Shown one piece after another: positions 15,577 to 38,386 of a stretch of DNA of 50,728 nt; position 1 is the stretch's first letter; the number at the start of each line of letters is the position of its first letter. The notes beneath the pieces are model-generated. The model saw only the letters and a list, made by a program, of their open reading frames with translations, did not search any database and was not told the origin of the DNA. Source of the stretch: a virus. Its lineage: Duplodnaviria > Caudoviricetes. The stretch lies in IMG/VR virus record IMGVR_UViG_3300032218_003147, positions 1-50,728 of that record, one strand, 5' to 3'. The translations under genes were made by a program, and so were the position numbers.

Positions 15577-15806
15577 TGTCTAAAATTGTATTAAATTATG
15601 AGCAAGCACACAAGTTTGTTGAAAAAAATAAAAAGAATGGTTTCTTTTGGAATGGTTATACCATTGTTAAGTGGACTCCAGGATCCAATGGATATATGCA
15701 AAAAAACGGAATGTTTCTTAATAATCAATGGGGTTATTCTTCAAGATATGAAGTAGACAAATCTGGCATGTGGGAGCTAAGCGATAAATATGCCAAGTTT
15801 ATTTGA
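15576..15806 (+). CDS. Hypothetical protein
   Basis: Coupled ORF. Confidence 0.6.
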   Translation: MSKIVLNYEQAHKFVEKNKKNGFFWNGYTIVKWTPGSNGYMQKNGMFLNNQWGYSSRYEVDKSGMWELSDKYAKFI

Positions 15807-16116
15807 AAAATTAGGAATTGATGTAGAGCATTTAGAATGGTATCACCTTTCTGCTTGTAATAATATGCCTATCAATTGGTTCTACGATGATTATGAATCA
15901 GATAAAGAAGTTGCAAAACAAATTGATCAAGTTTGTTTGCATTGCCCAGTAGTTAAACAATGTCATGCTGAAGGTGTTGCTAACAAAGAAAAAGGCGTTT
16001 GGGGTGGTATTTATATGGACCTTGGACGAGTAGATAAACAGTATAATGTTCATAAAGAACCTGAAATTTGGAAAGAGTTAAAAAAACTTCATGGCAAAAA
16101 TATCATACACACTTGA
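15790..16116 (+). CDS. whiB: WhiB-family Fe-S transcription factor
   Basis: W...SAC...C..CPV...C...GVWGG (four Cys plus the G[V/I]WGG turn). Confidence 0.9.
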   Translation: MPSLFEKLGIDVEHLEWYHLSACNNMPINWFYDDYESDKEVAKQIDQVCLHCPVVKQCHAEGVANKEKGVWGGIYMDLGRVDKQYNVHKEPEIWKELKKLHGKNIIHT

Positions 16117-24636: not shown

Positions 24637-25414
24637 TGGGCGGGAAGTTAAAAATGTTACCAATAATACCCTATATAAGAATACTCATTAAGACAAGACA
24701 TTTACCTAGATATCAAAAGAAAGCTAGAAGAAGATTTCATAGATATATACTATGGACTCTTTTTATCTATAAGTTCGATAGAAAGCATAAGGATCAATAT
24801 CCTTTTTAGAGTAGATTCGCTACGCTCATAATCCCCTCTTTTATTAGATATAAAATATGAATATATGTGGAGGATAATGGAGCGAAATGGTAGATAATGG
24901 AGAATAAATACAGTAGATTTGTCGATAAATCCATATCAACATATGAGATTATACCTGTTTAGTTATAAAGCGTACCATATCAACCTTCGTAATGTCAAAT
25001 CATATTGTGCGTATAAAAAAGTGATAAAAATCACATTATTTTGCACATATTTTGCACAATTTTGATTAAAATCTGCACAATTTTGATCTATTTTGATAAA
25101 ATATCGTGTGAATTAGATCACATCTTCGTAATGTCTACAAAATTAGATATAAATATATGATCGTATACACATATAAGTCCAGCGAATTTATATAGCTCTT
25201 CGTAATGTATATGGAATTAGGATCCAGTGAAAATTCCCGCCTCTTCGTAATGTCTGTTAAATTAAAAATACAGGCCCCCACAGAATATATAATGTGTAAT
25301 TAAATAATTATAATGTAAGGCCCAATTTTTTGATCTATATGTAGATAAAAGAAAACCCCCGCAGCTTGGCTGCGGGGGTGTATAGGATTTAGGTATACAA
25401 TCTACCAACCTACC
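24637..25414. repeat. Repeat-rich non-coding junction
   Basis: CTTCGTAATGT x4, tandem ATTTTG(CACA/AT) repeats and two CRP-type boxes; no ORF of 60 aa or more. Confidence 0.7.
25347..25379 (-). terminator. Intrinsic terminator ending the minus-strand island
   Basis: ACCCCCGCAGC/GCTGCGGGGGT hairpin followed by a T-run on the minus strand. Confidence 0.8.
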
Positions 25415-25708
25415 TTATGATGTAAGATACTCGTTACCGTTAACCTCTCCAAGTTCGGATATCCCTGTTAGACCCAACTCCTGCAGGGATACTTTGAGTA
25501 ACTTACATGTATTTTGTATGTCAACTAAGTTAAGGGGAATCAACTTAGAATCTGCCATGTAAATAATATAATTAGTTAAATACATTAATAGAGATTCATT
25601 GACATATACATTCTCTTTTATCATATGTGTTGCTAGAACTGCTGGAGATATTCTTGAATTCCCCAGTCCTGCTGCTATCTTTTCATGAAGTTTCTGTTCT
25701 GCTATCAT
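25415..25708 (-). CDS. Hypothetical protein
   Basis: Coupled operon, GAGGA RBS. Confidence 0.6.
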   Translation of the reverse strand: MIAEQKLHEKIAAGLGNSRISPAVLATHMIKENVYVNESLLMYLTNYIIYMADSKLIPLNLVDIQNTCKLLKVSLQELGLTGISELGEVNGNEYLTS

Positions 25709-26079
25709 GTAGTTTCCTCTCCACTGGATTCTAGCACATCATCTTGGTACCCGTCAACTTCTAAGGATATAATAAACTGTTTATCCATTAGCCAATCACG
25801 TACATGTTCATTTAAATCTTCAGGTCCGTACTCCAGGGAGAAGACGGGATTGGTCCAGAGTTCATCCCATACATCATCAATAGAATAATCAGGGTTAGCA
25901 ATAGTCTCTGAAGGGTCATCTAAGGACATAGAAGCATATTCAGTTGTAATTACATCCCAGACATATAGCCAGACAAGAGGTAGGCCAACAGGCATTTCCC
26001 CAAGCTTGGAAATCATTTGATCGAGTTCAGCACGTACATCATTTCCACGAACTTTTTCTTGTAGGTCTATATCATTCAT
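25705..26079 (-). CDS. Acidic hypothetical protein
   Basis: Coupled operon. Confidence 0.6.
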   Translation of the reverse strand: MNDIDLQEKVRGNDVRAELDQMISKLGEMPVGLPLVWLYVWDVITTEYASMSLDDPSETIANPDYSIDDVWDELWTNPVFSLEYGPEDLNEHVRDWLMDKQFIISLEVDGYQDDVLESSGEETT

Positions 26080-26347
26080 TGCGAAACCTTTCTTCTAACT
26101 CTAGTAGGATGTCTGATATTGTTTCAACTTTACCTTCTAAATAATGATATGTGGGTGCGTCAAATAAAGGTGAATTTGCAGATAGTTCTTCTTCTAGTTC
26201 ATTCTTCTTATCAATAAGGTGTCGTAGAAATGATTCTATGAAATCAATTGAATATTGATTCTCGCATTCCCCGCAAGTTACATCTGAGTCTTGATATGGT
26301 TGAGATTTACCACATGACATGCACCATGATTCATCATGCATTCCCAT
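26072..26347 (-). CDS. Zinc-finger hypothetical protein
   Basis: CMSC...CGEC. Confidence 0.6.
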   Translation of the reverse strand: MGMHDESWCMSCGKSQPYQDSDVTCGECENQYSIDFIESFLRHLIDKKNELEEELSANSPLFDAPTYHYLEGKVETISDILLELEERFRNE

Positions 26348-26594
26348 TTAGTTCCCCCTTCGCAAACGCAATTGCATATGTAAGTGCATATAGTTCAGCA
26401 TATGTTTCCGTAACGCCTTCCCAATACCTGCGTTCCATAGAGTCCATTGCTTCTTCTGTTTCTTCTTCTTGTTCAACTGCAAGTATTAATTGTGTTTCTG
26501 CTTCAACCATTAATGTCTTAAGGTGACCGTGCATAATATCTGCACCGTCCATTCCTAATTCGATTTGCTTTTGTAGATATGGGTCTAGCGCCAT
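26334..26594 (-). CDS. Hypothetical protein
   Basis: Coupled operon. Confidence 0.6.
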   Translation of the reverse strand: MALDPYLQKQIELGMDGADIMHGHLKTLMVEAETQLILAVEQEEETEEAMDSMERRYWEGVTETYAELYALTYAIAFAKGELNGNA

Positions 26595-27325
26595 TATAAT
26601 TGAACCTTTCTATATTCAGGGACTTTGGTTTCCAAGTATACCTTATGGGTCTGACATTCTGCTACAGCCTCTAGGTCAGCCTCTCCCAGCCAGTGACAGG
26701 CACCGCAGATTTCTCCACAGTCATTCTCTTCGCAGTATTCCATTTGGTCAGTGGCGTCGCAATCACGGCATTGATTATCATACCTAGATTCACTAATCAT
26801 TTCACCTCGTAGGAATTCACATTCTCCACCCCAACCAGTCTCTTCCTCATATGAGTAAGTAAATAGTAAATCAGGATATTGTGCAGACAATTTAGAAATA
26901 GCAGGAAAGACGGGAGACCAAGCAGTATTAAAGTTATAATGAATTACTTTGTTATCGCCATTGTCTGCTTCTTCAAAGTTAGTATCAGGATACTTATCAT
27001 CAGATGATACTGCTACATCCCATTTTGTTCCCCATTCACGAACATTAAATGAATACCAATCATCAGTCTTAAATTTAATCTGTTCATCAAATGGAATGGA
27101 AGAATCAGTTTGCTTGTCATATGCTTCCATGTCTGTTGGTTTAATGATATTCCAGAATGCAAAAATCGGGGAAGGATAAAGAACATCCTTTTTCTCTTGT
27201 TGCATAGTAGTAGTATTCCATGAGTCATGAACCATATGGAATGGTTGGTTTAATTGTTCTTTCATTTTAGTTACAGATTCAGGATTACCTTCTATAGTTA
27301 ATCCGTTATATACCCAGTTTGGCAT
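26594..27325 (-). CDS. DUF1281/YubB ferredoxin-like protein with C-terminal Cys cluster
   Basis: MPNW..N.L.I.G, WY......WGTKWD, FNTAWSP. Confidence 0.8.
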   Translation of the reverse strand: MPNWVYNGLTIEGNPESVTKMKEQLNQPFHMVHDSWNTTTMQQEKKDVLYPSPIFAFWNIIKPTDMEAYDKQTDSSIPFDEQIKFKTDDWYSFNVREWGTKWDVAVSSDDKYPDTNFEEADNGDNKVIHYNFNTAWSPVFPAISKLSAQYPDLLFTYSYEEETGWGGECEFLRGEMISESRYDNQCRDCDATDQMEYCEENDCGEICGACHWLGEADLEAVAECQTHKVYLETKVPEYRKVQL

Positions 27326-27352
27326 TGGAGAGTTTTCTTTCTATTAGTAGGT

Positions 27353-27598
27353 TTAGTTATCAAATACTAAAGAGTCATACAGTTCAGGTTCGCCTGTATC
27401 CTCGTTTTTTGTCCATAAATCTATCTGAAAATTACGGCGATATAATTCAGGCTCGCCGTCTGAAATAGCAAAAATCTCCTGCTCAGAAAGATTATCAAGA
27501 TACTGTGTATTTTTGTCGTAGCCATTATCACCGTCAATTTTAACGGAATATACTTTTGTGAACTCGACTGTATAAACGCTATGTGTTATTTCTGTCAT
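27353..27598 (-). CDS. Hypothetical protein
   Basis: GAAAGG RBS, downstream of a motif promoter. Confidence 0.6.
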   Translation of the reverse strand: MTEITHSVYTVEFTKVYSVKIDGDNGYDKNTQYLDNLSEQEIFAISDGEPELYRRNFQIDLWTKNEDTGEPELYDSLVFDN

Positions 27599-27628
27599 GG
27601 TATTACCTTTCGTTGGGTTGATGTATTC

Positions 27629-27650
27629 ATTATAGCAGACGGGACTGACA
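27629..27650 (-). promoter_or_regulatory. PafBC/RecA-NDp-type promoter
   Basis: TGTCAG-TCCCGTCTGC-TATAAT. Confidence 0.8.
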
Positions 27651-27655
27651 AATGT

Positions 27656-27769
27656 CTAGTCCTCATAAGGGGTTATATTACCAGTCAAGCTATTATAATA
27701 TGCCTCTGATTTACAGGCACAATAATAGATCCCTGGAATATCTGAACATAGCCAATGATGTTTATGCAT
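27656..27769 (-). CDS. Micro-protein (37 aa, His/Cys)
   Basis: MHKHHWLCSDIPGIYYCACK...; tightly packed operon. Confidence 0.5.
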   Translation of the reverse strand: MHKHHWLCSDIPGIYYCACKSEAYYNSLTGNITPYED

Positions 27770-27773
27770 TTAG

Positions 27774-27887
27774 TTATGCTCCCAATCCATCAGATTTGCC
27801 TGTTTCAATACATTCTCTACATACATACCAACCGCCTTCAATAGTAATATAATCAGCTAATCCTTCACATATGCAACATTCATTCAT
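27774..27887 (-). CDS. Micro zinc-finger protein (37 aa)
   Basis: MNECCICEG...VCREC; TAATG coupling. Confidence 0.55.
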   Translation of the reverse strand: MNECCICEGLADYITIEGGWYVCRECIETGKSDGLGA

Positions 27888-28045
27888 TAGTCAAAATACC
27901 CTTCTGCCCATAAGCCTTGGAGAAACTCCTGAGCCTTCCAAAGATTATTATATAGCCAAGGGTCATCATCAGAATTCACGGTAGTTATAGCAGACTGAAT
28001 AGCACTAACCATTTCATCTAAATCATTCATAGCATAACCTAGCAT
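27887..28045 (-). CDS. Small protein (52 aa)
   Basis: MLGYAMNDLDEM...GLWAEGYFD; TAATG coupling on both sides. Confidence 0.6.
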   Translation of the reverse strand: MLGYAMNDLDEMVSAIQSAITTVNSDDDPWLYNNLWKAQEFLQGLWAEGYFD

Positions 28046-28197
28046 TATCCTACCTCTATTCCTGCATATTGGGCGATAGTATTTAATGTAATATGAATTA
28101 AACAGTCACAATCTCCGCCATTCATATTTTCCATGTATTCAATGTGTTGTTCGTTGTCCATATATATTTCATTTATTAAATCATTTATTAGGTTCAT
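28045..28197 (-). CDS. Small protein (50 aa), leaderless
   Basis: ATG 6 nt after TATAAT. Confidence 0.55.
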   Translation of the reverse strand: MNLINDLINEIYMDNEQHIEYMENMNGGDCDCLIHITLNTIAQYAGIEVG

Positions 28198-28203
28198 GTG
28201 ATT

Positions 28204-28225
28204 ATTATATACTAGACCACTGACA
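28204..28225 (-). promoter_or_regulatory. PafBC/RecA-NDp-type promoter
   Basis: TGTCAG-TGGTCTAGTA-TATAAT. Confidence 0.8.
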
Positions 28226-28365
28226 AATTTAGGTCATATCGTAAAGTCCAGCGATCTCCAGGGATATATCGTAAGTATCGTAAAGGTTATTTTAAGATAG
28301 ATCAAATGTATAATTTATCTGATATATCAGGGGGCCCCCGCAGCTTTGCAATTGCAAAAAAAATA

Positions 28366-28393
28366 TGAACCTTTTATAGTCATGTTCAGGACT
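28366..28393 (-). ncRNA. H-type pseudoknot motif, copy 2
   Basis: AGTC-C-TGAAC-AT-GACT-ataaaag-GTTCA. Confidence 0.65.
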
Positions 28394-28412
28394 TTTACCA
28401 GCGAGGGTAAAT

Positions 28413-28751
28413 CTATTGTGCTTGTGAATATTTTTCTATAAATGCATCAAATGTATAAGGATTTCCGTCTACACTTACAGTAAAATCAGTGAAGTCAATT
28501 TTTGTATGTTCATAACTTTCCTCACCACCATTTTCATCTGCATAAATTCCATAACCAGTTTCTGAGTCATGGTCTGTTTGCAGTGCATTAAATAAAATAC
28601 GAGTTGCATACCCATAGTCTGTCCAACGAGGTTTTGCTTTGACTAAGGCATTTGCTAAGTCAATAAGTTTTTCATCTCCACCCCAATGTGAGTAAAGAGT
28701 TACATAGCAACCTTCGCCTTGCTTGACAACAAAGTTTGTTCTTGAACCCAT
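28413..28751 (-). CDS. Hypothetical phage protein
   Basis: MGSR.NF......LYSHWGG..., RW.D..YATRI. Confidence 0.65.
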   Translation of the reverse strand: MGSRTNFVVKQGEGCYVTLYSHWGGDEKLIDLANALVKAKPRWTDYGYATRILFNALQTDHDSETGYGIYADENGGEESYEHTKIDFTDFTVSVDGNPYTFDAFIEKYSQAQ

Positions 28752-28874
28752 TATATTCCTGCTCCTATTCCTACTGCTATTAAGATTGCCAATACGATTA
28801 TGATAAATAAAGTGTCCATGTTCCTATCCTATCAGAAAGAGGGGGACTTATCAAATCCCCCTCTCTCTATTTAA

Positions 28875-29297
28875 TTAGAGATAACGAGCAACGGCATTAT
28901 ATGTCGAAGTATTAACTGTTTCCTCATCTGTCATTTGCAGAATACGGATAGCGTTTTGGATTTCCTCTTTTTGCTCACGATAAGTGCTTTGGTGCATTGT
29001 TACAAAGTCCTTTTCAGGTTCTGTTGGCAAACCCTCTTTAGATACTGTTATATCAAAGTCAATGTTCAGGGTGTTATTCCATGAACGAAAGTTAGTGCGG
29101 AAGTTTTCTGCCTTCTTGATATTTGCTACTGCAAAATCAGTAAGTTCCTTGACCCACTTCTCATACGCCTTTTTATACTTTACTTCGTTTGCTTCTTGTG
29201 AGGCGTAGTCTTTTTCTAACTTCGCTAGTGCAGTTTCTAGTGCCTTGATTACCTTTGGTGTTGCGATTTTAACTGAGATTGCTTTTCCTCTAGCCAT
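28875..29297 (-). CDS. Hypothetical protein
   Basis: AAAGGA RBS, downstream of a motif promoter. Confidence 0.7.
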   Translation of the reverse strand: MARGKAISVKIATPKVIKALETALAKLEKDYASQEANEVKYKKAYEKWVKELTDFAVANIKKAENFRTNFRSWNNTLNIDFDITVSKEGLPTEPEKDFVTMHQSTYREQKEEIQNAIRILQMTDEETVNTSTYNAVARYL

Positions 29298-29335
29298 TTT
29301 GTTTCCTTTTCTTTAGTTGGGTTGTTATTAGTAGT

Positions 29336-29357
29336 ATTGTATCAGAGGGGTCTGACA
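29336..29357 (-). promoter_or_regulatory. PafBC/RecA-NDp-type promoter
   Basis: TGTCAG-ACCCCTCTGA-TACAAT. Confidence 0.8.
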
Positions 29358-29359
29358 AA

Positions 29360-29587
29360 TTAGGCTTCATGTCGGGGGTGGTCTACCCTGACATTTTTAG
29401 TGATAGATGAGTTAATTATAGTTCCTTGAAAGGCTACGATCATTTTTGCTAATCTCATCTCATCAGTAGAGGTCAGCTCGATTTGCAGATTATCTAGCAC
29501 TTCATATTCCACACCGAATTGCATAGCCTTGCCCAACCCGTACCCCATTTGGGCACGGGACGGGACTTGTAGAGTAACTACTGCCAT
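29360..29587 (-). CDS. Hypothetical protein
   Basis: Coupled ORF. Confidence 0.55.
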   Translation of the reverse strand: MAVVTLQVPSRAQMGYGLGKAMQFGVEYEVLDNLQIELTSTDEMRLAKMIVAFQGTIINSSITKNVRVDHPRHEA

Positions 29588-30237
29588 TAGTAAGCCTCTT
29601 GGACATTAGCAACTTCATAGTGTTCAACTGAAATATCACCATGTTGTGAGTCTGCAAATAGATTATCATTAAGTTCAGACTCGAAATCAAAGTCATCAGT
29701 TAAAGATACTTGCATTGTGCCTGATACATGCAAAGTTGCTTCCCAGTTGATTTCCTTAGTTAATTCAATATCAAGGATTTCAGCAATAGATGTTAAAGTA
29801 TCTTGGTCATCACTATCAGTAAAGTTGTCAATGATAAGAGAACGAACAGAGTCAATCTTATTCTGAAACTGTAAAGCAATTCTAGCATTTTGGCGGGAGT
29901 TGTGAAGTTCATATTCTATATTACGAACCTTATCAGTTATGTATTCAGCATCAGAGAAATCCTTAATTACTTTATATGTAACTAATAAATCTGGATTATA
30001 TTTTTCTGCATCAGATAGAGGCAGGTTGTTCATTGTTGTTTCCATATCTTGTCCTTCTTTCGTTGTTGAGGGTACTATTGTAGCAGGTGCTACTGACAAT
30101 AATGTGCATATAGAGTTACATGGACAAGTTAATTGCATCACACCATTTGGCCAACCATATCCATCTTTATATGTATATTCAATTAGGGCATCACAGTCTC
30201 CTGTGCATACCCATGTACATTTGCTATATTTAGTCAT
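29587..30237 (-). CDS. Cys-rich N-domain plus acidic C-domain; nested second start at 30045
   Basis: Leaderless ATG at 30237; internal promoter and RBS before ATG 30045. Confidence 0.65.
   Translation of the reverse strand: MTKYSKCTWVCTGDCDALIEYTYKDGYGWPNGVMQLTCPCNSICTLLSVAPATIVPSTTKEGQDMETTMNNLPLSDAEKYNPDLLVTYKVIKDFSDAEYITDKVRNIEYELHNSRQNARIALQFQNKIDSVRSLIIDNFTDSDDQDTLTSIAEILDIELTKEINWEATLHVSGTMQVSLTDDFDFESELNDNLFADSQHGDISVEHYEVANVQEAY
30077..30098 (-). promoter_or_regulatory. PafBC/RecA-NDp-type promoter (intragenic)
   Basis: TGTCAG-TAGCACCTGC-TACAAT. Confidence 0.75.
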
Positions 30238-30243
30238 AAGAGT

Positions 30244-30265
30244 ATTATATCGTAAGCCACTGACA
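30244..30265 (-). promoter_or_regulatory. PafBC/RecA-NDp-type promoter
   Basis: TGTCAG-TGGCTTACGA-TATAAT. Confidence 0.8.
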
Positions 30266-30330
30266 AATTCCCCCGCCTGAAAATGCGGGGGCCCCCGCAT
30301 ATTTATGCACCAGCTTGAATATTTATTTTG

Positions 30331-30404
30331 CGATTGCGATGGGACTTGAACCCACGATCTCTACCGTGACAGGGTAGCGAATTAACCAACTATTCTACGC
30401 AACC
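30331..30404 (-). tRNA. tRNA-Asp(GTC)
   Basis: Reverse complement: acceptor GGTTGCG/CGCAATC, CTACC-CTGTCAC-GGTAG, GTGGG-TTCAAGT-CCCAT. Confidence 0.9.
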
Positions 30405-30411
30405 AATAAGG

Positions 30412-30439
30412 TGAGCAGTTTATACACTTACTCAGGTGT
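30412..30439 (-). ncRNA. H-type pseudoknot motif, copy 3
   Basis: ACAC-C-TGAGTA-A-GTGT-ataaac-TGCTCA. Confidence 0.65.
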
Positions 30440-30444
30440 TGCGA

Positions 30445-31473
30445 TTATTTCGCTAGTGCTAAGACTTGCTTAACAATTTTATTTTTCTCAGCAGTTACAA
30501 CAGGGTCGAAACCACTTGCACCTGCCATGAGAGAGTCACCAGTCTTGCGAGCAGTGCGGTAGTAATCAAGGCGTTCAGTAAGTGCATTAACTACACCCCA
30601 TGCAGTACCCTTGATATTAGCATTTGTTGGTGAGTTATGATACAACTCATCAAGGAGAACAACTTTGTTTTCCCATTTCTTAAGAGAACCCTTAGAGTCC
30701 TTCTCAGGCTTTGGATACATAGCGTTAATAATTTGAGAGAACTTTTTGTCATTGACTTCAACGGCAAATAATTCTTGTGCTTGCTTCTCGAACTCATCAG
30801 CATAAGCAAAAGTTAATCCGAGTGCTTGTCGTGCTTGTGCAATTTTGCCATCAACAGTTTGTGTGTGGCGTATCTTGAAAGACTGCTTTGCCTTTTTCAT
30901 AGCAAAATTAAGTGTATTCTGACACATAACACGAACGGGGGTGATAGCAGATTGAACTGCAACAGAACCATCATGGCTAGTCCATACAATTAAGTATAGT
31001 TTAGTTTCATCATTGACACCATTAGGGTCAAGAACAATAGTGCGTGGGATTGACATTGTACCAAATACGATATTGCCACCCTTTAGAGAACCAGCAGACT
31101 CCCAAAATACATCTGAGTTTCCATCATGTAGGTTATCAGCAAAAGAGAATAATTCCTCATTTTGTACTTCTTTGTAACGAGAACCTACAACTGAGAGAAC
31201 ATCAGTTTGTCCAGCAACATATGGGTTATCACGAATAACTAATTGGTTATCCTTGATTGAACTCCAGTTTTCAGGTAAGTGTTCGGCAACAGGTTGTAAG
31301 CGAACATTCCAATTAGATAGTTTAGCACCATCTAACATTTGTGCAGTAGTGACTGCTTCATCTTGATTAAATACTTTATTAGCAAAACTATGCCATGCAG
31401 GTACTTGTCGGAGATTTACAGCAAGCGAAACAGAACCATTTTCTACTTCGGATTTATGAGCATTATTTGTCAT
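30445..31473 (-). CDS. DUF932 / TIGR03299-family phage-plasmid protein
   Basis: PAWH, VG.RY..VQN, ESAGSL.GG, SHDGS, TPVRV.C.NTL, IRHT, GTAWG..NA..E..D. Confidence 0.88.
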   Translation of the reverse strand: MTNNAHKSEVENGSVSLAVNLRQVPAWHSFANKVFNQDEAVTTAQMLDGAKLSNWNVRLQPVAEHLPENWSSIKDNQLVIRDNPYVAGQTDVLSVVGSRYKEVQNEELFSFADNLHDGNSDVFWESAGSLKGGNIVFGTMSIPRTIVLDPNGVNDETKLYLIVWTSHDGSVAVQSAITPVRVMCQNTLNFAMKKAKQSFKIRHTQTVDGKIAQARQALGLTFAYADEFEKQAQELFAVEVNDKKFSQIINAMYPKPEKDSKGSLKKWENKVVLLDELYHNSPTNANIKGTAWGVVNALTERLDYYRTARKTGDSLMAGASGFDPVVTAEKNKIVKQVLALAK

Positions 31474-31504
31474 TTTTACTTCTTTCTATTTGTTTGATTA
31501 TCTG

Positions 31505-31526
31505 AGTATAACATATGGGACTGACA
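31505..31526 (-). promoter_or_regulatory. PafBC/RecA-NDp-type promoter
   Basis: TGTCAG-TCCCATATGT-TATACT. Confidence 0.8.
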
Positions 31527-31593
31527 AATGTCTATCCGTAAAGTCCAGCAACCTTACGTAATATCGTAAATGTCCTTTTTGTCCTACGTAATG

Positions 31594-31654
31594 CCTACGT
31601 AATGATATGTGATAAATATCACAGCGTGGCGACACGCCCGAGTGCGGGGGCCCC
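31594..31654. repeat. 61-bp exact direct repeat, copy 1
   Basis: Identical to 35267-35327. Confidence 0.9.
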
Positions 31655-31770
31655 GAATTTATTAGCTCGATCCACGCATTATATCTATTAAGTATAAAAT
31701 AAAATAAATGAATGAACCAATCATCAATACATTAACTATATGGGCAAACAATTTCATTTTATTATTCTCC

Positions 31771-32493
31771 TTATTTTTTAGTGGCACTAAATCGAATGTC
31801 TGCTTTTCCATATACGCATAATTTACATGATACGCATGCAGAACCATTAGTTGAGATAAGCGGAATCTGTTTATTATTTTCAGGACATTTTGCACCAACC
31901 TTGCCAGTTAATTCTTTCATTTTAGATTCAGTTGCAGCGAATGTTTTTCCCAAATATGCTAATTTAATTCCATGTTCAGTTTTTAATTCTGCGCCAATAG
32001 GTGCGTTATCATCATCAGTAGAATAATAAAGTGAAAGATTAGGGATATTCTTTAAAATAAGTGCAGCAGACTTTACACGTGTATAAACCCAAAATTGTAC
32101 ATTAGGGCGATTAATAATTACATATTGCCATGCACGAGCATAGGTATCGTTAAAGAAATCCCCGTCCCAGTGGATACGGAATAGCATAGGGGCATTTTTC
32201 TTTTCACAATCAACAATGAACTCATCAATCATGTTTTCTAATAAGTCAACCATAGTTGGCTCATCCGCATTTTTTAATAAATCCCAATTGTGTAATAGAT
32301 TAGCCTTTACGCCTTTGAATAATTTTTCAAGTTTTCCCGCATAGCAGACACTTTCGCATATGCTTGTGGCGCCAGGGCATGAGAATTCTTTACCTGCAGG
32401 GAGACCGAAGGTGTTAGCAATTGTGGCAGTCTTGCCATTAGGAGAGACAGCATTAGCAACCTTTCTATCGTTAGAACGTTTTAGTTTAGTCAT
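31771..32493 (-). CDS. GP88-family protein
   Basis: FGLPA...SCPG....C...CYA, FRIHWDGDF, FWVYTR, C..CKLC; start moved to the ATG after GAAAGAAGG. Confidence 0.8.
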   Translation of the reverse strand: MTKLKRSNDRKVANAVSPNGKTATIANTFGLPAGKEFSCPGATSICESVCYAGKLEKLFKGVKANLLHNWDLLKNADEPTMVDLLENMIDEFIVDCEKKNAPMLFRIHWDGDFFNDTYARAWQYVIINRPNVQFWVYTRVKSAALILKNIPNLSLYYSTDDDNAPIGAELKTEHGIKLAYLGKTFAATESKMKELTGKVGAKCPENNKQIPLISTNGSACVSCKLCVYGKADIRFSATKK

Positions 32494-32524
32494 GAGTTGA
32501 CCTTCTTTCATTGGAGAGGAGATA

Positions 32525-32546
32525 AGTATAGCAGGCGGGACTGACA
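32525..32546 (-). promoter_or_regulatory. PafBC/RecA-NDp-type promoter
   Basis: TGTCAG-TCCCGCCTGC-TATACT. Confidence 0.8.
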
Positions 32547-32798
32547 AATTAATTGTAAGACTTAGCGCATATAGTACAGATCGAATAGTTAGTGCAATAG
32601 CAATCGTTAATATCGGCCATTAGAAATAAATCCCTTCAGTAGACATATCTAAATCATTATAGATTTTTTCCTCTTGCCACTCAAAAAAATGAGTAGTGCA
32701 CATAGTAGACGGACGGGAATCAATAGACGATAGACCCATGAGATTAGCATAACAGATATTACATGACATAGTTGCCTCTTTCTTTTGTTGATATGGGA

Positions 32799-32820
32799 AT
32801 TATAGCAGGTTAGACTGACA
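32799..32820 (-). promoter_or_regulatory. PafBC/RecA-NDp-type promoter
   Basis: TGTCAG-TCTAACCTGC-TATAAT. Confidence 0.8.
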
Positions 32821-32905
32821 TACTCAAACGACACGCCGTAATTTTTAGTGTGATGAATATCACAGGCGGGGGCCCCAGCTTGATCTGCAGGGGCCCAAAA
32901 AAATG

Positions 32906-32936
32906 TGAGCCGTTTACGTGGTCAATGCTCAGGACC
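32906..32936 (-). ncRNA. H-type pseudoknot motif, copy 4
   Basis: GGTC-C-TGAGC-ATT-GACC-acgtaaacg-GCTCA. Confidence 0.65.
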
Positions 32937-32970
32937 CTTGCCCTTTATATTTAAACACCGATGGCGGGTG

Positions 32971-33010
32971 TGAGTAGTTTATTTGATTACTTGCTCTTGC
33001 TCAGGAGCAA
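32971..33010 (-). ncRNA. H-type pseudoknot motif, copy 5
   Basis: TTGCTC-C-TGAGCA-A-GAGCAA-...taaac-TACTCA. Confidence 0.6.
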
Positions 33011-33017
33011 TTCTATT

Positions 33018-33200
33018 TTATTCTACGCCGAGATTTTTCATGCACTCTTCCCAAAATCGGTCCGAGTCAAATCGTTCATTATCAGCGAAAAACATTTCAG
33101 AAAAATCATTTACTAAATCCTCATAAACTTCTATGCGGATTTCAGTTGCATAAGAGTTTAAGATTTCAGCGGTGGCTACATAGTCTTTGCGGGTCATCAT
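33018..33200 (-). CDS. Small protein (MMTRKDYV family, paralog A)
   Basis: Paralog of 36270-36443. Confidence 0.7.
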   Translation of the reverse strand: MMTRKDYVATAEILNSYATEIRIEVYEDLVNDFSEMFFADNERFDSDRFWEECMKNLGVE

Positions 33201-33270
33201 TTGCTAATCTCCCATGCTACAAATGCAATAGTTAAAAGCATGAATGCTGGAATAATTAAAAGCATTATCA

Positions 33271-33477
33271 TTAGTGAACGACCTTTAATACTGCATAAGA
33301 ACTTCCTGCGTTAATTTCATCAAGAATTGGTGAAAGACGGGGAGCGATTAAATCTTTAAGCATTCCTTCAAGCATTGTTACCTGAAAGTCATGAGGTAAA
33401 GATAAGAGTTTTTTAGCAACAGGGTGAGTTTCATCAAACTCTGTTACAAACTCTAATTTATGTACAACAGTTTTCAT
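33271..33477 (-). CDS. Hypothetical protein
   Basis: AAAGGA RBS. Confidence 0.6.
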   Translation of the reverse strand: MKTVVHKLEFVTEFDETHPVAKKLLSLPHDFQVTMLEGMLKDLIAPRLSPILDEINAGSSYAVLKVVH

Positions 33478-33506
33478 TTATTTGTCCTTTTCTTTTTGTT
33501 GGTTGG

Positions 33507-33534
33507 TGAGCCTTTTTGTAACTTGCTCAGGTTA
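33507..33534 (-). ncRNA. H-type pseudoknot motif, copy 6
   Basis: TAAC-C-TGAGC-AA-GTTA-caaaaag-GCTCA. Confidence 0.65.
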
Positions 33535-33581
33535 GTTCCCGCCACTTATTTAGAGTCGCTGTACGTTAGCGACTTATTTGA

Positions 33582-33737
33582 TTATAGTTTAACGCTAGTG
33601 TAGCGTTCATCTCCATCTACATCAAGTAGCAGAGTAGTAGTGCGAGCATTAACTGGAATAATCTCCTTGATTGTTCCTGTTACCTTGCTTGATTGAGTGG
33701 TGAATAAATCACCGATTTGATAAGTGTTTGTAGCCAT
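33582..33737 (-). CDS. Small SH3-like beta protein (51 aa, not in ORF track)
   Basis: MATNTYQIGDLFTTQSSKVTGTIKEI...; GAAGGA RBS. Confidence 0.65.
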   Translation of the reverse strand: MATNTYQIGDLFTTQSSKVTGTIKEIIPVNARTTTLLLDVDGDERYTSVKL

Positions 33738-33773
33738 TTTTTTCCTTCTTTCGTTAGGTTGTTTATAGTAGAT

Positions 33774-33795
33774 ATTCTACCATAAGGGTCTGACA
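33774..33795 (-). promoter_or_regulatory. PafBC/RecA-NDp-type promoter
   Basis: TGTCAG-ACCCTTATGG-TAGAAT. Confidence 0.8.
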
Positions 33796-33808
33796 AATAT
33801 TGCCAAAT

Positions 33809-33952
33809 TTAGAGGATTTCGTCTGTGTCGAAATTGGGTATATCTATAAATAAAGACTCATCTTGTTCTTCATCTTCTTCTTCCATTTCCCAAGTTAGAA
33901 AGTCGCTTGGGTGTAACTCTGATTTAATTTCCCATGAGAAAGTGTATGACAT
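33809..33952 (-). CDS. Very acidic micro-protein (47 aa)
   Basis: MSYTFSWE...EMEEEDEEQDE; AGGA RBS. Confidence 0.55.
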   Translation of the reverse strand: MSYTFSWEIKSELHPSDFLTWEMEEEDEEQDESLFIDIPNFDTDEIL

Positions 33953-33983
33953 TTTATTTCCTATTCTTTTTGTTGATAGTAGT

Positions 33984-34005
33984 ATTATAGCATTTTGGTC
34001 TGACA
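33984..34005 (-). promoter_or_regulatory. PafBC/RecA-NDp-type promoter
   Basis: TGTCAG-ACCAAAATGC-TATAAT. Confidence 0.8.
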
Positions 34006-34134
34006 TTTATCAACTTATATCTTAATAATCTCATATAGTAAGACGCTCAACCTATGTGATAAAACTCACACCGATACGCCTTGACACGACACGCCCGAAC
34101 GGGGGCCCTAGCTTGATCTGTGGGCCCCCGATTT

Positions 34135-34248
34135 TCAATCAAATAATTTATTTTTATATTTTTGTTTTCGATTATATTTTTTCTTTGATGGAATTGCAGT
34201 TGCAGCATTACTACGACGCAATTCTTGTATGCGTTTTACTTTTTCCAT
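34135..34248 (-). CDS. Basic micro-protein (37 aa, not in ORF track)
   Basis: MEKVKRIQELRRSNAATAIPSKKKYNRKQKYKNKLFD; GAGGA RBS. Confidence 0.6.
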   Translation of the reverse strand: MEKVKRIQELRRSNAATAIPSKKKYNRKQKYKNKLFD

Positions 34249-34252
34249 TAGT

Positions 34253-34525
34253 TTAATCCTCATCATATTCTATCCAGTTTTCCAAGTGGTGTTGTTCAAT
34301 TATTGCATTAGCGGGAGCAGTTTCTTGTCCCCGCCATGATACGCCTTCAGGCAAATTAATTCTCTTAGAATAATCGCCATCATTATATGCATTAATGGCT
34401 TCAATGCATATTGGTACCATAGAATATGGGACGGGGGGATAGTGATTACTACGCAATTGTATAGTGATACTTTGCTCTAGTGACATATCCATAGTAGATA
34501 AGTCATGCGATAAATTATTTCCCAT
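34253..34525 (-). CDS. Hypothetical phage protein
   Basis: L.SNHYPPVP....C..AI, H.L..W. Confidence 0.7.
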   Translation of the reverse strand: MGNNLSHDLSTMDMSLEQSITIQLRSNHYPPVPYSMVPICIEAINAYNDGDYSKRINLPEGVSWRGQETAPANAIIEQHHLENWIEYDED

Positions 34526-34734
34526 TATTTTTCAACGACCTTTCGTCCTTCACGATAAAATACTTTTGTATAGCATTTTAGCGATGGTGTGTATAAATTA
34601 ACTGTTGAGTATTCATCGGCGAAACCCCAATCTACATATTTTGCAAACTCTTTGTGTGCTTGCAATTCATCTGAGTATTGAAAGACATGATTAGGCGAAG
34701 TCGCCTCATCATAGGTTACTGTTATTTTGTACAT
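34525..34734 (-). CDS. Hypothetical protein
   Basis: Coupled ORF. Confidence 0.6.
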   Translation of the reverse strand: MYKITVTYDEATSPNHVFQYSDELQAHKEFAKYVDWGFADEYSTVNLYTPSLKCYTKVFYREGRKVVEK

Positions 34735-34735
34735 A

Positions 34736-34870
34736 TTAGTTATTCCAATCTAGTGTGATACATTCACACTTATTTACAATTATTGTGTTACCTTGCTTTG
34801 ATACTGTTGCAAGGGTGTCGCATTCATCGCAGATAAATACGCCGTCTAGGTTGTCTAGGATATTTCCCAT
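34736..34870 (-). CDS. Micro zinc-binding protein (44 aa)
   Basis: CDEC...CEC; first gene after the promoter. Confidence 0.55.
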   Translation of the reverse strand: MGNILDNLDGVFICDECDTLATVSKQGNTIIVNKCECITLDWNN

Positions 34871-34905
34871 TTAATTAGTCTCGCTTTCTTTTGTTGAATA
34901 ATGGA

Positions 34906-34927
34906 ATTATAGCAGGTAGCACTGACA
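34906..34927 (-). promoter_or_regulatory. PafBC/RecA-NDp-type promoter
   Basis: TGTCAG-TGCTACCTGC-TATAAT. Confidence 0.8.
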
Positions 34928-34929
34928 AA

Positions 34930-35151
34930 TTAGTTAATGTCTACTAATATTGTTGCCCAAAAATCAGGCTTCAAGAATGACCCACTTGTATATTGTGGGC
35001 GTACTTGTATGGCGTAGGCTTCAAAACCTTCACCATAATATAGACCTTCACGCTTTTCAGCATATTGGATAATTCCGTCAATATGTCTGCCTAGTGAACG
35101 ATAGTATTTTCCCTCTAGTAGGGTTGGGATATCATATTTATATGTAGCCAT
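34930..35151 (-). CDS. Hypothetical protein
   Basis: Start moved to the ATG after GAAAGAGG. Confidence 0.6.
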   Translation of the reverse strand: MATYKYDIPTLLEGKYYRSLGRHIDGIIQYAEKREGLYYGEGFEAYAIQVRPQYTSGSFLKPDFWATILVDIN

Positions 35152-35182
35152 GAGTAAGACCTCTTTCTTTTTGTATATGGAT

Positions 35183-35204
35183 ATTATACCATTTTCCACT
35201 GACA
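35183..35204 (-). promoter_or_regulatory. PafBC/RecA-NDp-type promoter
   Basis: TGTCAG-TGGAAAATGG-TATAAT. Confidence 0.8.
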
Positions 35205-35266
35205 AATTCTTGTTACTTGCTAGTAATGTCACAATGTGAGACGCTCACGTAATGTGATAAATATCA

Positions 35267-35327
35267 CCTACGTAATGATATGTGATAAATATCACAGCGT
35301 GGCGACACGCCCGAGTGCGGGGGCCCC
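35267..35327. repeat. 61-bp exact direct repeat, copy 2
   Basis: Identical to 31594-31654. Confidence 0.9.
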
Positions 35328-35475
35328 AAATTTTTATGCACTTTCATGCATAAAAACCTAGATGATCTCAGCTATTTGAAATCTTTAAAAATCAATTCAA
35401 CAATTTTTAAATCTTCATCTCCTAAATTATCAAGCTCGATTGCTTCTACAAATCCAAAAATATCTTTTTCCATTT

Positions 35476-35670
35476 TTAATTCTCCAAACTTTCTAAATAA
35501 TCAGATTCAAAATCTGCTAAGGCACAACGGTATGCGATTGGGTCACACTCTTTTAAAATCTGTGACGGATAAAAAGTCATGTCTGCAATTTTGAAAGTGC
35601 CCCATGATTCATCTAGTGCTTCATCAAAAATTTGCTTTAATTCTAAAGCCTGTTCAAAATCTAATTCCAT
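35476..35670 (-). CDS. Small acidic protein
   Basis: F...LDE......I....FYPS.ILKECDPIAYR; GGAG RBS. Confidence 0.65.
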   Translation of the reverse strand: MELDFEQALELKQIFDEALDESWGTFKIADMTFYPSQILKECDPIAYRCALADFESDYLESLEN

Positions 35671-35826
35671 TTATTTATTTCTCCATTACTCTAAGAATTG
35701 TGTCAAGGTTTTTTTCTGATAGCAAAACCTGAGATGTACCCCATAGACCTGCTAACCATTGGTCTCCATATTTTTCTTTTGCTAGTTTTGAACACATAGC
35801 AATTTTTTCATTTCTTGTCATTTTCA

Positions 35827-36003
35827 TTAGTTAGTTACCTTCCAATTAGTAGCAAACGGCAAGCGGTCAAAATCATCATAGACCCAAAATCGGTCAATGT
35901 TTTGTTCGCAATTTATGCAGAAAGTATATTCTGCATCTTGATGTGACGAGATAGCACTCTCGTTTGGTGTGTGCGTTACGCACTCTTTTGTTAATGTAGT
36001 CAT
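35827..36003 (-). CDS. Small zinc-binding protein (58 aa)
   Basis: C..H.P....TFCINCEQNI; GAAAGGTGG RBS. Confidence 0.6.
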   Translation of the reverse strand: MTTLTKECVTHTPNESAISSHQDAEYTFCINCEQNIDRFWVYDDFDRLPFATNWKVTN

Positions 36004-36038
36004 ATTAAGACCACCTTTCTTTTTTCTTTATGTATGGA

Positions 36039-36060
36039 ATTATAACACGGGGGACTGACA
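36039..36060 (-). promoter_or_regulatory. PafBC/RecA-NDp-type promoter
   Basis: TGTCAG-TCCCCCGTGT-TATAAT. Confidence 0.8.
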
Positions 36061-36113
36061 AATATGCCCGTTTTTCGGGCGTGTCGCAAAACTATTTTTG
36101 TGATATGTATCAC

Positions 36114-36128
36114 CAAACAGATGTTCGA
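36114..36128. promoter_or_regulatory. LexA (SOS) box, one mismatch
   Basis: CAAAC-AGAT-GTTCGA versus consensus CGAAC-N4-GTTCG. Confidence 0.55.
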
Positions 36129-36159
36129 TGTATTCTTTATTTAATTTTTGTATAATGGA

Positions 36160-36181
36160 ATTATAGCAGGGGGGACTGACA
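36160..36181 (-). promoter_or_regulatory. PafBC/RecA-NDp-type promoter
   Basis: TGTCAG-TCCCCCCTGC-TATAAT. Confidence 0.8.
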
Positions 36182-36269
36182 TTTTTGGGTGTTTTTCGGG
36201 CGTGTCGCAAAACTATTTTTGTGAAGTGCGTCACAGGCGGGGGCCCCCAAATTTTTGAGGGGATCTCAG

Positions 36270-36443
36270 CTAGTCCTCCAAGCAAGCAAGTTCAAATTTA
36301 TTTGGTGAAAAGTTTTTATTATCTGCATGAAAAAAATCTGCAAACTCTAAAACTAAATCTTCAAAAACAAATTGGTCTGCAATAAGAGGGCGAAACTCTT
36401 TTAAGATATTCGATACTGCTACATAGTCTTTGCGTGTCATCAT
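36270..36443 (-). CDS. Small protein (MMTRKDYV family, paralog B; not in ORF track)
   Basis: MMTRKDYVAVSNILKEF...FEDLVLEFADFFHADNKNF...C. Confidence 0.7.
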   Translation of the reverse strand: MMTRKDYVAVSNILKEFRPLIADQFVFEDLVLEFADFFHADNKNFSPNKFELACLED

Positions 36444-36734
36444 TTAATTATTCTCCCATTTTTCAATATCTTCAATAAATTTATTTATTTGGTGTTCCAT
36501 TAAATCATCTGCCATAGCGTCAAATTTATCTTCACCTAAGCAAACTAATGCAACACCCGTTGCAACAGTTGCGGAAAGTGTTGCAGAATATTCAAACAAC
36601 AAATTTCCTAATTCTTCAATATCAGCACCACGAGAAACACCAGCAATAATGTCTCTTGCTTTATTTAGCACTACATCATCAACAATAGAACGATTAGAAA
36701 TATCTTTAATAAGATTAGCGGTTTCAAAATTCAT
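36444..36734 (-). CDS. Hypothetical helical protein
   Basis: TAATG-coupled ATG at 36734; GAGGAG RBS. Confidence 0.6.
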   Translation of the reverse strand: MNFETANLIKDISNRSIVDDVVLNKARDIIAGVSRGADIEELGNLLFEYSATLSATVATGVALVCLGEDKFDAMADDLMEHQINKFIEDIEKWENN

Positions 36735-36913
36735 TAGTGTTGCTCCTCGCAATTAGTATAAGGGTCAAATTGGCAAAACATGCAACCCATTTTTTCAAAA
36801 TGGTTTTCGCAATAATAAGCGAATTGGATTTCATCACAACAAATAAATGTCGTGTAGTCAGTTAAATAGTTTTCGTCAATGTGACGCAAAACAAGGGTAG
36901 GATTAGTAGTCAT
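36734..36913 (-). CDS. Small Cys-rich protein (59 aa)
   Basis: CCDE.Q..YYC..H.E.MGC.FC; GAGG RBS. Confidence 0.6.
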   Translation of the reverse strand: MTTNPTLVLRHIDENYLTDYTTFICCDEIQFAYYCENHFEKMGCMFCQFDPYTNCEEQH

Positions 36914-37039
36914 ATTATTTGACCTCTTTCTTTAGTACGGATAGGGCATTGGCAAGGCTTGCTTTACGCTGTGCCTCTACCATTTCTTTATATTCTTCAA
37001 GTGTCATTTTTTGACCTTTCTTTAGTTTCTTATAATGGA

Positions 37040-37061
37040 ATTATAACACAGGGGACTGACA
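37040..37061 (-). promoter_or_regulatory. PafBC/RecA-NDp-type promoter
   Basis: TGTCAG-TCCCCTGTGT-TATAAT. Confidence 0.8.
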
Positions 37062-37170
37062 AATATGGGTACTTTTATCGGCGTGTCGGAATTTATTTTT
37101 GTGATATACGCCACAGGCGGGGGCCCTATACAGGGGATCGCTATATGCAGGGCCCCCAAATTTTAGCGAT

Positions 37171-37287
37171 TTATTTCAGCTGTTTTATTTCTTGAATGAA
37201 ATCTTTTATCACTAACCTAAACATGATAAAGGCGGGAATTGCAATAAACAACTGCACTAGTGTAGTTAATAATCTATTAGTACTCAT
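37171..37287 (-). CDS. Small membrane protein
   Basis: MSTNRLLTTLVQLFIAIPAFIMF; GAAGGG RBS. Confidence 0.5.
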   Translation of the reverse strand: MSTNRLLTTLVQLFIAIPAFIMFRLVIKDFIQEIKQLK

Positions 37288-37517
37288 TAGATACCCTTCG
37301 CTAACATGATACATATACAACCCACAACAATAAAAGTAAATACAATAAACACTATTTAACTCCCTTATATAGATAACTCCATGCCTTACGGCATACCATG
37401 ATTGACTTACAATTATCGCAACAGATAACACCATCACGATTTAACTCTAGGTCATATACATCTATGCTAGTGCTTACTGCACCACACACAGACTTAACAG
37501 ATACAGACATGCTCATA

Positions 37518-37715
37518 TTACTTACCTACTTTCTTATTACCATATAAGGACATATAGCGTTTAACAATAACGCTACCTTTATCCATACCATATTTATTTA
37601 TAAGGTAATCGCATTGTGTTAATGTTAATGCGAATACAGGTTTAGGAGAGTAACCTGCATACTCTAAGCCAAACTCTATGGCTATATCCTTACGGATTTC
37701 GTTAGTGTAGTTCAT
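37518..37715 (-). CDS. Hypothetical protein
   Basis: GAAAGGTGG RBS. Confidence 0.6.
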   Translation of the reverse strand: MNYTNEIRKDIAIEFGLEYAGYSPKPVFALTLTQCDYLINKYGMDKGSVIVKRYMSLYGNKKVGK

Positions 37716-37824
37716 GATGAACCACCTTTCTTTAATTTGATTAGACTTTCTAATCTATTTGCTGACCTGATTATTTGCTTATTACTAAGGCTCACAGGAT
37801 TTCTTATTTAATTGTTATACTGGA

Positions 37825-37846
37825 AGTATAACATCACCCACTGACA
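37825..37846 (-). promoter_or_regulatory. PafBC/RecA-NDp-type promoter
   Basis: TGTCAG-TGGGTGATGT-TATACT. Confidence 0.8.
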
Positions 37847-37899
37847 AATTAGCCCGTTTCTCGGGCGTGTCTACCAATTATTTTTGTGATTTACATCAC

Positions 37900-37914
37900 C
37901 GAACAAGTGTTCGA
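37900..37914. promoter_or_regulatory. LexA (SOS) box
   Basis: CGAAC-AAGT-GTTCGA, matching the actinobacterial consensus. Confidence 0.7.
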
Positions 37915-37946
37915 TTTATTCACTATTTAATTTTTTGTATACGGGA

Positions 37947-37968
37947 AGTATAACAGATAACACCGACA
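37947..37968 (-). promoter_or_regulatory. PafBC/RecA-NDp-type promoter
   Basis: TGTCGG-TGTTATCTGT-TATACT. Confidence 0.8.
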
Positions 37969-38386
37969 AAATCAAGTCGACACGCCGTGTTTATGCAAAG
38001 TATTTATGTGATGTGCACCACATGCGGGGGCGGGTCCCTTTTCGGGCGCACTATTATTTTTTTTAAAAGATAGTTGATATATGTATCATACATGAAAAAT
38101 TTCCATTAACATTTTGATCAAATTGAAAAAAGGGGCGGGAGTTCCCTAGAAATTACAATTATCCAATATTACTATAAGGAATATACACTCTAGATAGCTA
38201 CAATATAATCACAATATAATAAATACAGCGCAATTGGTATGATTTTATAAAAAATAAAAATAAAATCGACGGGAATGTGATCAGAATCCTAGAAACTATA
38301 AATAAACACTTAACATAAGATCATTACATACGTCTAGAATATATTTACATTAGCCAAAATTCAATATTTTGATCAAAAATCGATTT

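Follow-up and report, generated by a model that had tools for sequence, protein, structure and literature searches.

The minus strand of the 50.7-kb virus record IMGVR_UViG_3300032218_003147, analysed here from end to end (the window; G+C content about 35%), carries a block of small phage genes whose promoters match those that the actinobacterial activator PafBC uses at recA. We propose, with a probability of roughly two in three and from sequence comparison, that these would be promoters of the host RNA polymerase with SigA (RNAP-SigA), giving basal output from a strong -10 box and boosted by host PafBC once single-stranded DNA (ssDNA) has activated it.

The window has 18 matches to the pattern TGTCRG-N10-TAnnnT (Table 1). 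They lie between 26635 and 37968, exclusively on the minus strand; chance predicts 0.90 +/- 1.04, and none of 100 shuffles gave more than 4. An earlier sequence-only reading of this DNA, which gave for each site the low plus-strand coordinate of its -10 box, had listed 17 of them; every one was recovered, together with an 18th that may be partly codon-constrained. The 10-nt spacer that it called invariant is indeed so, since spacers of 8, 9, 11 and 12 nt yield only 2, 1, 0 and 1 matches. The hexamer is TGTCRG in 18/18 sites and the -10 box is TAYAMT in 17 of the 18, with a TG extension at -15/-14 in 15 (the same count as reported earlier for 17 sites). Sixteen sites are intergenic, and the start codon follows after 30-41 bp in 13 cases and after 7 bp, without a leader, in two. 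One such leaderless gene, at 29587-30237, has an internal promoter before an in-frame ATG, so that two nested products are possible. A generic sigma-70 scan did not exceed chance (55 vs 60.9).

Match to the PafBC consensus

The PafBC consensus, tGTCgg(N10)tA(N3)T, places the hexamer at -28 to -23 and conserves GTC; residues R46 and R50 of PafB read it, and the complex with RNAP-SigA is enhanced by ssDNA (PMC8635444). Passages of a second study likewise show activation of PafBC by ssDNA (PMC11804915). The window sites fit this consensus exactly in hexamer, spacer and position, and they have the canonical SigA -10 box that PafBC-dependent promoters require. The register is fixed by leaderless starts: in related loci the first ATG after the -10 box peaks at 6-7 nt (72 sites), with a second peak at about 23-36 nt, which sets the hexamer at -28 to -23. 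Outside the search pattern, T at -22 has a frequency of 0.70 in the phage sites and 0.89 in the recA sites of likely hosts, and C or G at -21 frequencies of 0.87 and 1.0. The identification as PafBC (RecA-NDp) promoters has held in every comparison that the sequences allowed: consensus, position, PafBC and the motif before recA in the likeliest hosts, and no PafB or WYL homolog found in five complete relatives of the phage. Two other identities for TGTCAG were rejected, namely the reversed -35 element of a divergent promoter (there is no conserved -10 box upstream) and a WhiA site of the GACAC type (G stands at -29 in 3%).

Conservation in relatives and in a distant phage

About 760 IMG/VR stretches match one gene of the family. 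As relatives we used the best 80 of 589 IMG/VR loci retrieved with GP88, which form 55 clusters at 95% identity. The pattern occurs in 80/80 of these loci, with 6-19 copies each; with a 10-nt spacer there are 1038 sense against 4 antisense matches, and any other spacer gives at most 67. In five large relative genomes the copies are confined to one block of about 10-15 kb, with few stragglers. When the search was anchored on the extended -10 box alone, TGTCRG stood at the exact position in 282/462 non-redundant sites, so that selection has acted on the hexamer in addition to a -10 box that is good by itself. As a side observation, 50/64 truncated related loci stop less than 1.5 kb from a promoter; perhaps the block is a terminal repeat, or else a hypervariable region where assemblies break off.

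No array was present in 20 GenBank phages of actinobacteria, Evy, Gilson, BillNye, Yaboi, Trina and L5 included. These phages and three further records, a small sample, have 0-5 scattered matches, mostly near control level (at most two in Evy, Gilson, BillNye and Yaboi). A different result was obtained for G534 (L300-L302), a phage of 51% G+C content. It has 4/79 open reading frames (ORFs) in common with this family, and its small-gene island (about 16600-31520) contains six or seven intergenic TGTCGG-N10-TAnnnT sites. The portal protein of G534 shares 75% identity with its counterpart in DSL-LC01, a phage without any such site. This suggests an independent gain of the promoter design in a second, distant lineage. 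G534 also has five clustered DnaA-type boxes at 27513-27558.

Composite cassettes

The promoters are part of a repeating unit that consists of a GGG..CCC run, a CRP-type site, a WhiA-type box and the promoter itself. The sequence-only reading was right about the TGTCRG and -10 elements and overlooked the WhiA-, CRP- and SOS-type boxes. GACACGCC is given as the WhiA consensus of Mycobacterium tuberculosis in the sections of PMC13473873 that deal with it, and WhiA sites can occur in either orientation and at variable spacing, according to parts of PMC10243135. All nine WhiA-type boxes of the window lie within the block, and the 80 loci have 525 of them against 12 in controls; throughout the family the distance to the -10 box is 41-42 bp for forward and 32-34 bp for reverse boxes. 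Activation at promoters of this class takes WhiA together with a WhiB partner.

The CRP consensus is TGTGA-N6-TCACA. Perfect copies number 332 in the 80 loci, compared to 3 at other spacings and 0 in controls. Upstream of TGTC their positions peak at 34, 44, 54 and 64-65 bp, and a single further peak, at 49 bp, is out of phase. Such a site, upstream and in helical phase, is what characterizes class I CRP-dependent promoters. Eight of the ten CRP-type sites in the block lie at 44, 54 or 64-65 bp, and five of the block's sites are perfect. Both CRP and WhiA are encoded in 5/5 likely-host genomes.

Two boxes between tandem promoters resemble the SOS consensus, which was also seen before host recA in this analysis. 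Across the family SOS-type boxes give a modest signal, with 12 exact cores vs 0; when one mismatch is allowed, there are 26 with N4 and 25 with N2. DnaA boxes are numerous in the relatives (281 vs 9 in the control, in 75/80 loci), where they are oriented and lie within cassettes; no exact DnaA box was found in the window. The cassettes of the relatives (L001-L080) also contain the words GCCCGCAA (136) and AAATGTCCGA (107), both missing from the window, which has GGGGCCCCC runs instead. Because host recA combines a WhiA box, an SOS box and a PafBC-type site, the phage cassettes look like a recA control region in stronger form.

The likely host

An actinobacterial host is indicated by WhiB and terminase, and the low G+C content makes Nanopelagicaceae the likeliest family; the host should then be a lake actinobacterium with PafBC. 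WYL-domain matches occur in 121/121 Nanopelagicaceae genomes, with two or more in 116 (these matches can include a third WYL protein, of helicase length). A tandem WYL pair is present in 5/5 genomes checked, and one such pair has PafB and PafC as its structural matches in the PDB. The equivalents of R46, R50 and K52, in an R-x-F-E-R-D-K helix, are kept in 14/14 PafB loci examined. We collected 30 recA loci of this family, two of which were without upstream DNA, and 27/28 usable loci have YGTCRG-N10-TAnnnT upstream of recA. Hence pafBC and the same motif before recA, which the earlier reading had named as a check on its predicted host, are both present in Nanopelagicaceae.

Eight of 30 inspected host sites, in a neighbourhood check that scanned 13 ORFs, are within 60 nt of recA, dnaB, dinB, DEDD exonuclease or SOS-boxed DUF6504 genes. 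Upstream of recA (L176-L205), a WhiA-type box is kept together with an SOS box that overlaps one -10 box; the PafBC-type promoter stands apart from that -10 box and has a weak one of its own, TACCTT. Beyond Nanopelagicaceae, the helix-turn-helix (HTH) domain of PafC was found in 91/121 Acidimicrobiia genomes and in one Microbacteriaceae genome. For lake actinobacteria, a host lineage free of PafBC is unlikely.

Does PafBC drive the block?

According to our model, host RNAP-SigA would start the block at a basal level on phage entry through the strong, mostly extended -10 boxes. ssDNA from end processing or replication of the phage DNA, or ultraviolet (UV) damage, would activate PafBC, which would bind the TGTCRG boxes at -28 to -23 and raise output by sigma adaptation; host WhiA, CRP and LexA (and DnaA in relatives) would tune single cassettes. 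We infer here a PafBC-bearing host, early expression of the block, an ssDNA trigger during infection and tuning by host regulators.

Several observations weigh against this reading. The phage sites are stronger than their host counterparts: 369/555 have a near-consensus -10 box, compared to 0/18 host recA sites, and 365/555 have the TG extension, compared to 1/18. A -35-like hexamer at 17-18 bp accompanies 192/736 phage sites (26%), against 28 at a control position, with no family-wide -35 consensus; a promoter that depends on PafBC would be expected to lack a -35 consensus and to be weak in the absence of its activator. The first base of the hexamer is C in 19 and T in 8 of the 27 host recA sites and T in all phage sites. 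The contribution of PafBC to these promoters may thus be small, and promoters used at entry would be ill served by a factor that needs prior damage. On the host side, a quick dUTPase tree gives no placement of the phage within Nanopelagicaceae, a search for GP88 found it in 0/401 Nanopelagicaceae genomes, and phage and Nanopelagicaceae transfer RNA (tRNA) genes are 72-82% identical, which gives no host link. The strict motif is not enriched genome-wide in five near-complete host genomes (47 vs 43 in the control), and PafC was not found in 30/121 Acidimicrobiia genomes. Finally, the family has potential regulators of its own, with one HTH_17 protein in the replication module of the relative that was scanned and WhiB plus HTH_17 in the family, and most family proteins are without annotation.

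Extended -10 promoters should work without an activator, so the phage sites probably fire without PafBC. Since the phage -10 boxes are strong or extended, and a quarter of the sites have a -35-like hexamer, PafBC would more likely be a booster, or second gear, than the sole switch. The earlier statement that PafBC promoters drive the block is therefore supported as to the identity of the sites and too strong in its verb. TGTCAG itself is not a -35 element, as was then argued, but a separate -35-like hexamer lies 17-18 bp upstream of the -10 box in 5/17 sites.

Could a phage protein read the boxes instead? A MotA-like activator (HTH_17, WhiB or an unannotated small protein) would recognize TGTCRG, and the likeness to PafBC would be convergence or a relic. 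Besides the candidates named above, the MotA/AsiA system of phage T4 is a precedent, itself mentioned in PMC8635444, and an unannotated activator is possible. However, no WYL domain or PafB homolog was found in five complete relatives, and no sigma factor among 97 window proteins or 93/117 ORFs of one relative (those not shared with the window). Close Streptomyces relatives are without the array, the adjacent boxes match host regulators, and G534 has the same box despite its few shared ORFs while DSL-LC01 has none, which fits a shared host factor. We therefore consider a phage-encoded reader quite unlikely.

A second alternative is that the boxes are mainly decoys. Replicating phage DNA, with its many presumably high-affinity boxes for PafBC, WhiA, CRP and LexA (and DnaA), would soak up the regulators and PafBC-bound polymerase, blunting repair, division and replication, with transcription left to the extended -10 boxes. 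Each phage copy brings 18 strict sites, compared to 8-11 per host genome; none of five host genomes has a perfect CRP palindrome, whereas the block has five; and WhiA, CRP and DnaA are central host regulators. Decoys, on the other hand, need no fixed geometry, yet the -10 spacing is invariant, the CRP-type sites are helically phased (34/44/54/64 bp) and the WhiA distances are fixed, which favours working promoters over titration of PafBC. Moreover, PafBC is retained on DNA in complex with polymerase (PMC8635444), so that binding implies a promoter complex. As the main role of the boxes a decoy function is improbable, and the idea is compatible with boosting by PafBC. Very unlikely, although the -10 boxes are strong and extended and -35 hexamers are common, is a PafBC-independent role, in which SigA holoenzyme (or RbpA/CarD) reads TGTCRG or the hexamer only shapes the DNA: the literature examined describes no such SigA element, host housekeeping genes are not enriched for the box, and ten promoter-like sites of the form TTGAC-N17-19 lie on the plus strand of the window outside the block.

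Genomic setting

Among the products encoded in the window are WhiB, terminase, ThyX, a class II ribonucleotide reductase, a pyrimidine-dimer glycosylase and nine tRNAs. The genes of the block are small and mostly without known function, apart from DUF932, GP88 and DUF1281. In cluster BE phages, DUF932 and GP88 homologs are present in two copies per record near the genome end, i.e. in a terminal repeat. We presume early expression of the block, because its homologs are sited in Streptomyces BE terminal repeats and below Pleft of L5.

Table 1. Promoters, regulatory boxes and genes of the leftward block and its surroundings, in window coordinates.
Feature	Coordinates	Strand	Remarks
PafBC-type promoter	37947..37968	-	TGTCGG, extended -10, -35-like hexamer
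PafBC-type promoter	37825..37846	-	
PafBC-type promoter	37040..37061	-	
PafBC-type promoter	36160..36181	-	tandem partner of 36039
PafBC-type promoter	36039..36060	-	
PafBC-type promoter	35183..35204	-	
PafBC-type promoter	34906..34927	-	
PafBC-type promoter	33984..34005	-	-35-like hexamer
PafBC-type promoter	33774..33795	-	
PafBC-type promoter	32799..32820	-	-35-like hexamer
PafBC-type promoter	32525..32546	-	of GP88 gene
PafBC-type promoter	31505..31526	-	of DUF932 gene; -35-like hexamer
PafBC-type promoter	30244..30265	-	no TG; leaderless (ATG 7 bp past -10)
PafBC-type promoter	30077..30098	-	inside ORF 29587-30237; in-frame ATG 31 bp on
PafBC-type promoter	29336..29357	-	
PafBC-type promoter	28204..28225	-	no TG; leaderless
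PafBC-type promoter	27629..27650	-	-35-like hexamer
PafBC-type promoter (18th)	26635..26656	-	in 3' end of DUF1281 gene, 41 bp before next start
WhiA-type box	37979..37986	-	GGCGTGTC (sense strand), 34 bp before -10
WhiA-type box	37864..37871	-	GACACGCC, 41 bp before -10
WhiA-type box	37080..37087	-	GACACGCC
WhiA-type box	36199..36206	-	GACACGCC
WhiA-type box	36078..36085	-	GACACGCC
WhiA-type box	35304..35311	-	reverse
WhiA-type box	34088..34095	-	reverse
WhiA-type box	32830..32837	-	reverse, 33 bp before -10
WhiA-type box	31631..31638	-	reverse
CRP-type site	38007..38022	.	near-perfect, start 54 bp before TGTC
CRP-type site	37885..37900	.	near-perfect, 54 bp before TGTC, adjoins SOS box
CRP-type site	37100..37115	.	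near-perfect, 54 bp
CRP-type site	36220..36235	.	perfect, 54 bp
CRP-type site	36099..36114	.	near-perfect, 54 bp, adjoins SOS box
CRP-type site	35281..35296	.	perfect, 92 bp
CRP-type site	35253..35268	.	near-perfect, 64 bp
CRP-type site	34055..34070	.	perfect, 65 bp
CRP-type site	32849..32864	.	perfect, 44 bp
CRP-type site	31608..31623	.	perfect, 97 bp
SOS (LexA)-type box	37900..37913	.	core CGAAC-N4-GTTCG without mismatch, between tandem promoters; box also upstream of host recA
SOS-type box	36114..36127	.	one mismatch, between tandem promoters
GGG..CCC runs	28330..37157	.	eleven, in eight places spaced by about 0.9-2 kb, at the head of cassettes; some form hairpins
Leftward block	25415..38022	-	about 36 small genes and promoter cassettes; presumed early region
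GP88-family gene	31771..32493	-	homolog of L5 gp88
DUF932 gene	30445..31473	-	
DUF1281_C (Api92-like) gene	26594..27325	-	
tRNA-Asp	30330..30404	-	within block
Terminator-like hairpin	25355..25379	-	at block end
WhiB-like regulator of the phage	15790..16116	+	actinobacterial host marker

Further observations concern the block and its borders. The small genes at 33018-33200 and 36270-36443 are paralogous, with 80% DNA identity over 46 bp at their start, and a 67-bp cassette at 31594-31660 recurs at 35267-35333 with 99% identity, which suggests a recent duplication. The words ATTACG(A/T)A and GGACTTTACG recur at 24988-25246, 28240-28279, 31537-31598 and 35248-35271. The AT-rich word cluster near 25 kb coincides with the convergence of the two transcription arms and a turn in GC skew; a further protein may bind here, or the cluster may have to do with replication or a genome end. 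Outside the block, stress-type auxiliary genes (Hsp20, Dps/ferritin, GroES, thioredoxin, WhiB) lie at 11670-17107, eight tRNAs form two clusters at 9362-10094 and 13143-13438, and a DenV-like pyrimidine-dimer DNA glycosylase gene at 21527-22006 fits a UV-exposed habitat.

Comparison with known systems

No report of PafBC-type promoters in a phage was found in the literature searched, with subscription papers and supplements largely outside the search, and a term search of PMC8612146 gave no mention of PafBC, WYL or WhiA. Portions of PMC10202952, PMC6802176, PMC12143481, PMC10611076 and PMC5712189 provide context only and no specific support.

The phage sites share with PafBC-dependent (RecA-NDp, recA P1-type) promoters of Actinomycetota the hexamer, the 10-nt spacer, the location at -28 to -23, the canonical -10 box and the flanks (PMC8635444; PMC11804915), and the likely hosts carry the cognate PafB residues. 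They differ in belonging to a lytic-type phage, where an array of 18 precedes small genes of unassigned function, and in their strong extended -10 box and frequent -35 hexamer, by which they are likely not activator-dependent. The host recA region (in Nanopelagicaceae; for the WhiA site in M. tuberculosis, PMC13473873) likewise combines a WhiA box, an SOS box and a PafBC-type promoter; the reverse WhiA box lies 32-35 bp before the -10 box in 12/22 host recA matches and 32-34 bp before it in the phage family. In the host, however, the WhiA box precedes the SOS-overlapped promoter and not the PafBC-type one, and the DNA upstream of host recA yielded no CRP site.

Single-gene identities show a relationship to Streptomyces Stanwilliamsviridae, whose terminases share 58-65% identity with the one in the window. 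The terminal-repeat region of these phages (BE/BK, e.g. Evy) likewise has DUF932 and GP88 in a small-gene block with repeated promoters, but many promoters of Evy have, judged by eye, ordinary -35-like hexamers. In 7/16 Evy sites, GACAC or GACAT words stand 36-41 bp before the -10 box. At 1200-10300 of Evy (L081), the words take the form CGGACA(C/T), 36-41 bp before TAGACT and at the same distance as the forward WhiA box in the present phage; they are possibly an ancestral WhiA-type site. The middle promoters of T4 (MotA/AsiA) also have a box between -35 and -10 that replaces the -35 contact; in T4, the phage itself encodes MotA and AsiA, which remodel domain 4 of sigma (PMC8635444), whereas no such phage factor was found here.

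WYL-domain proteins are bacterial ssDNA sensors for DNA repair and anti-phage defence. If our reading is true, a phage that uses such a sensor as an activator would reverse this picture. The family is large and likely infects dominant lake bacteria, so that infection might be tied to damage by sunlight and to the condition of the cell. The phage sites would also be natural high-strength variants for mapping sigma adaptation, for which a PafBC system of M. smegmatis already exists. A much bolder picture, possible though doubtful as a whole, is that an abundant lake phage family turns the ssDNA alarm of its host into an early switch, with PafBC, set off by the phage genome as it enters or replicates, redirecting polymerase onto super-consensus recA-like promoters; WhiA, CRP, LexA and DnaA boxes would read cell-cycle, energy and damage state and drain the regulators, and the design would have arisen at least twice.

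Co-option of host regulators by phages is already known, and use of PafBC would be a further case. Parts of PMC9437464 describe phage use of host LexA (GIL01, CTX, 186), Spo0A (phi29) and CtrA (Caulobacter phages). As in those cases, sites for host regulators tie phage genes to the state of the host, and LexA reports the same damage signal. The LexA and Spo0A systems, however, repress or defer the lytic cycle, whereas here the main factor would be an activator that rewires polymerase, together with up to four other host boxes, and an activator-based route would thus be added to the repressor-based ones.

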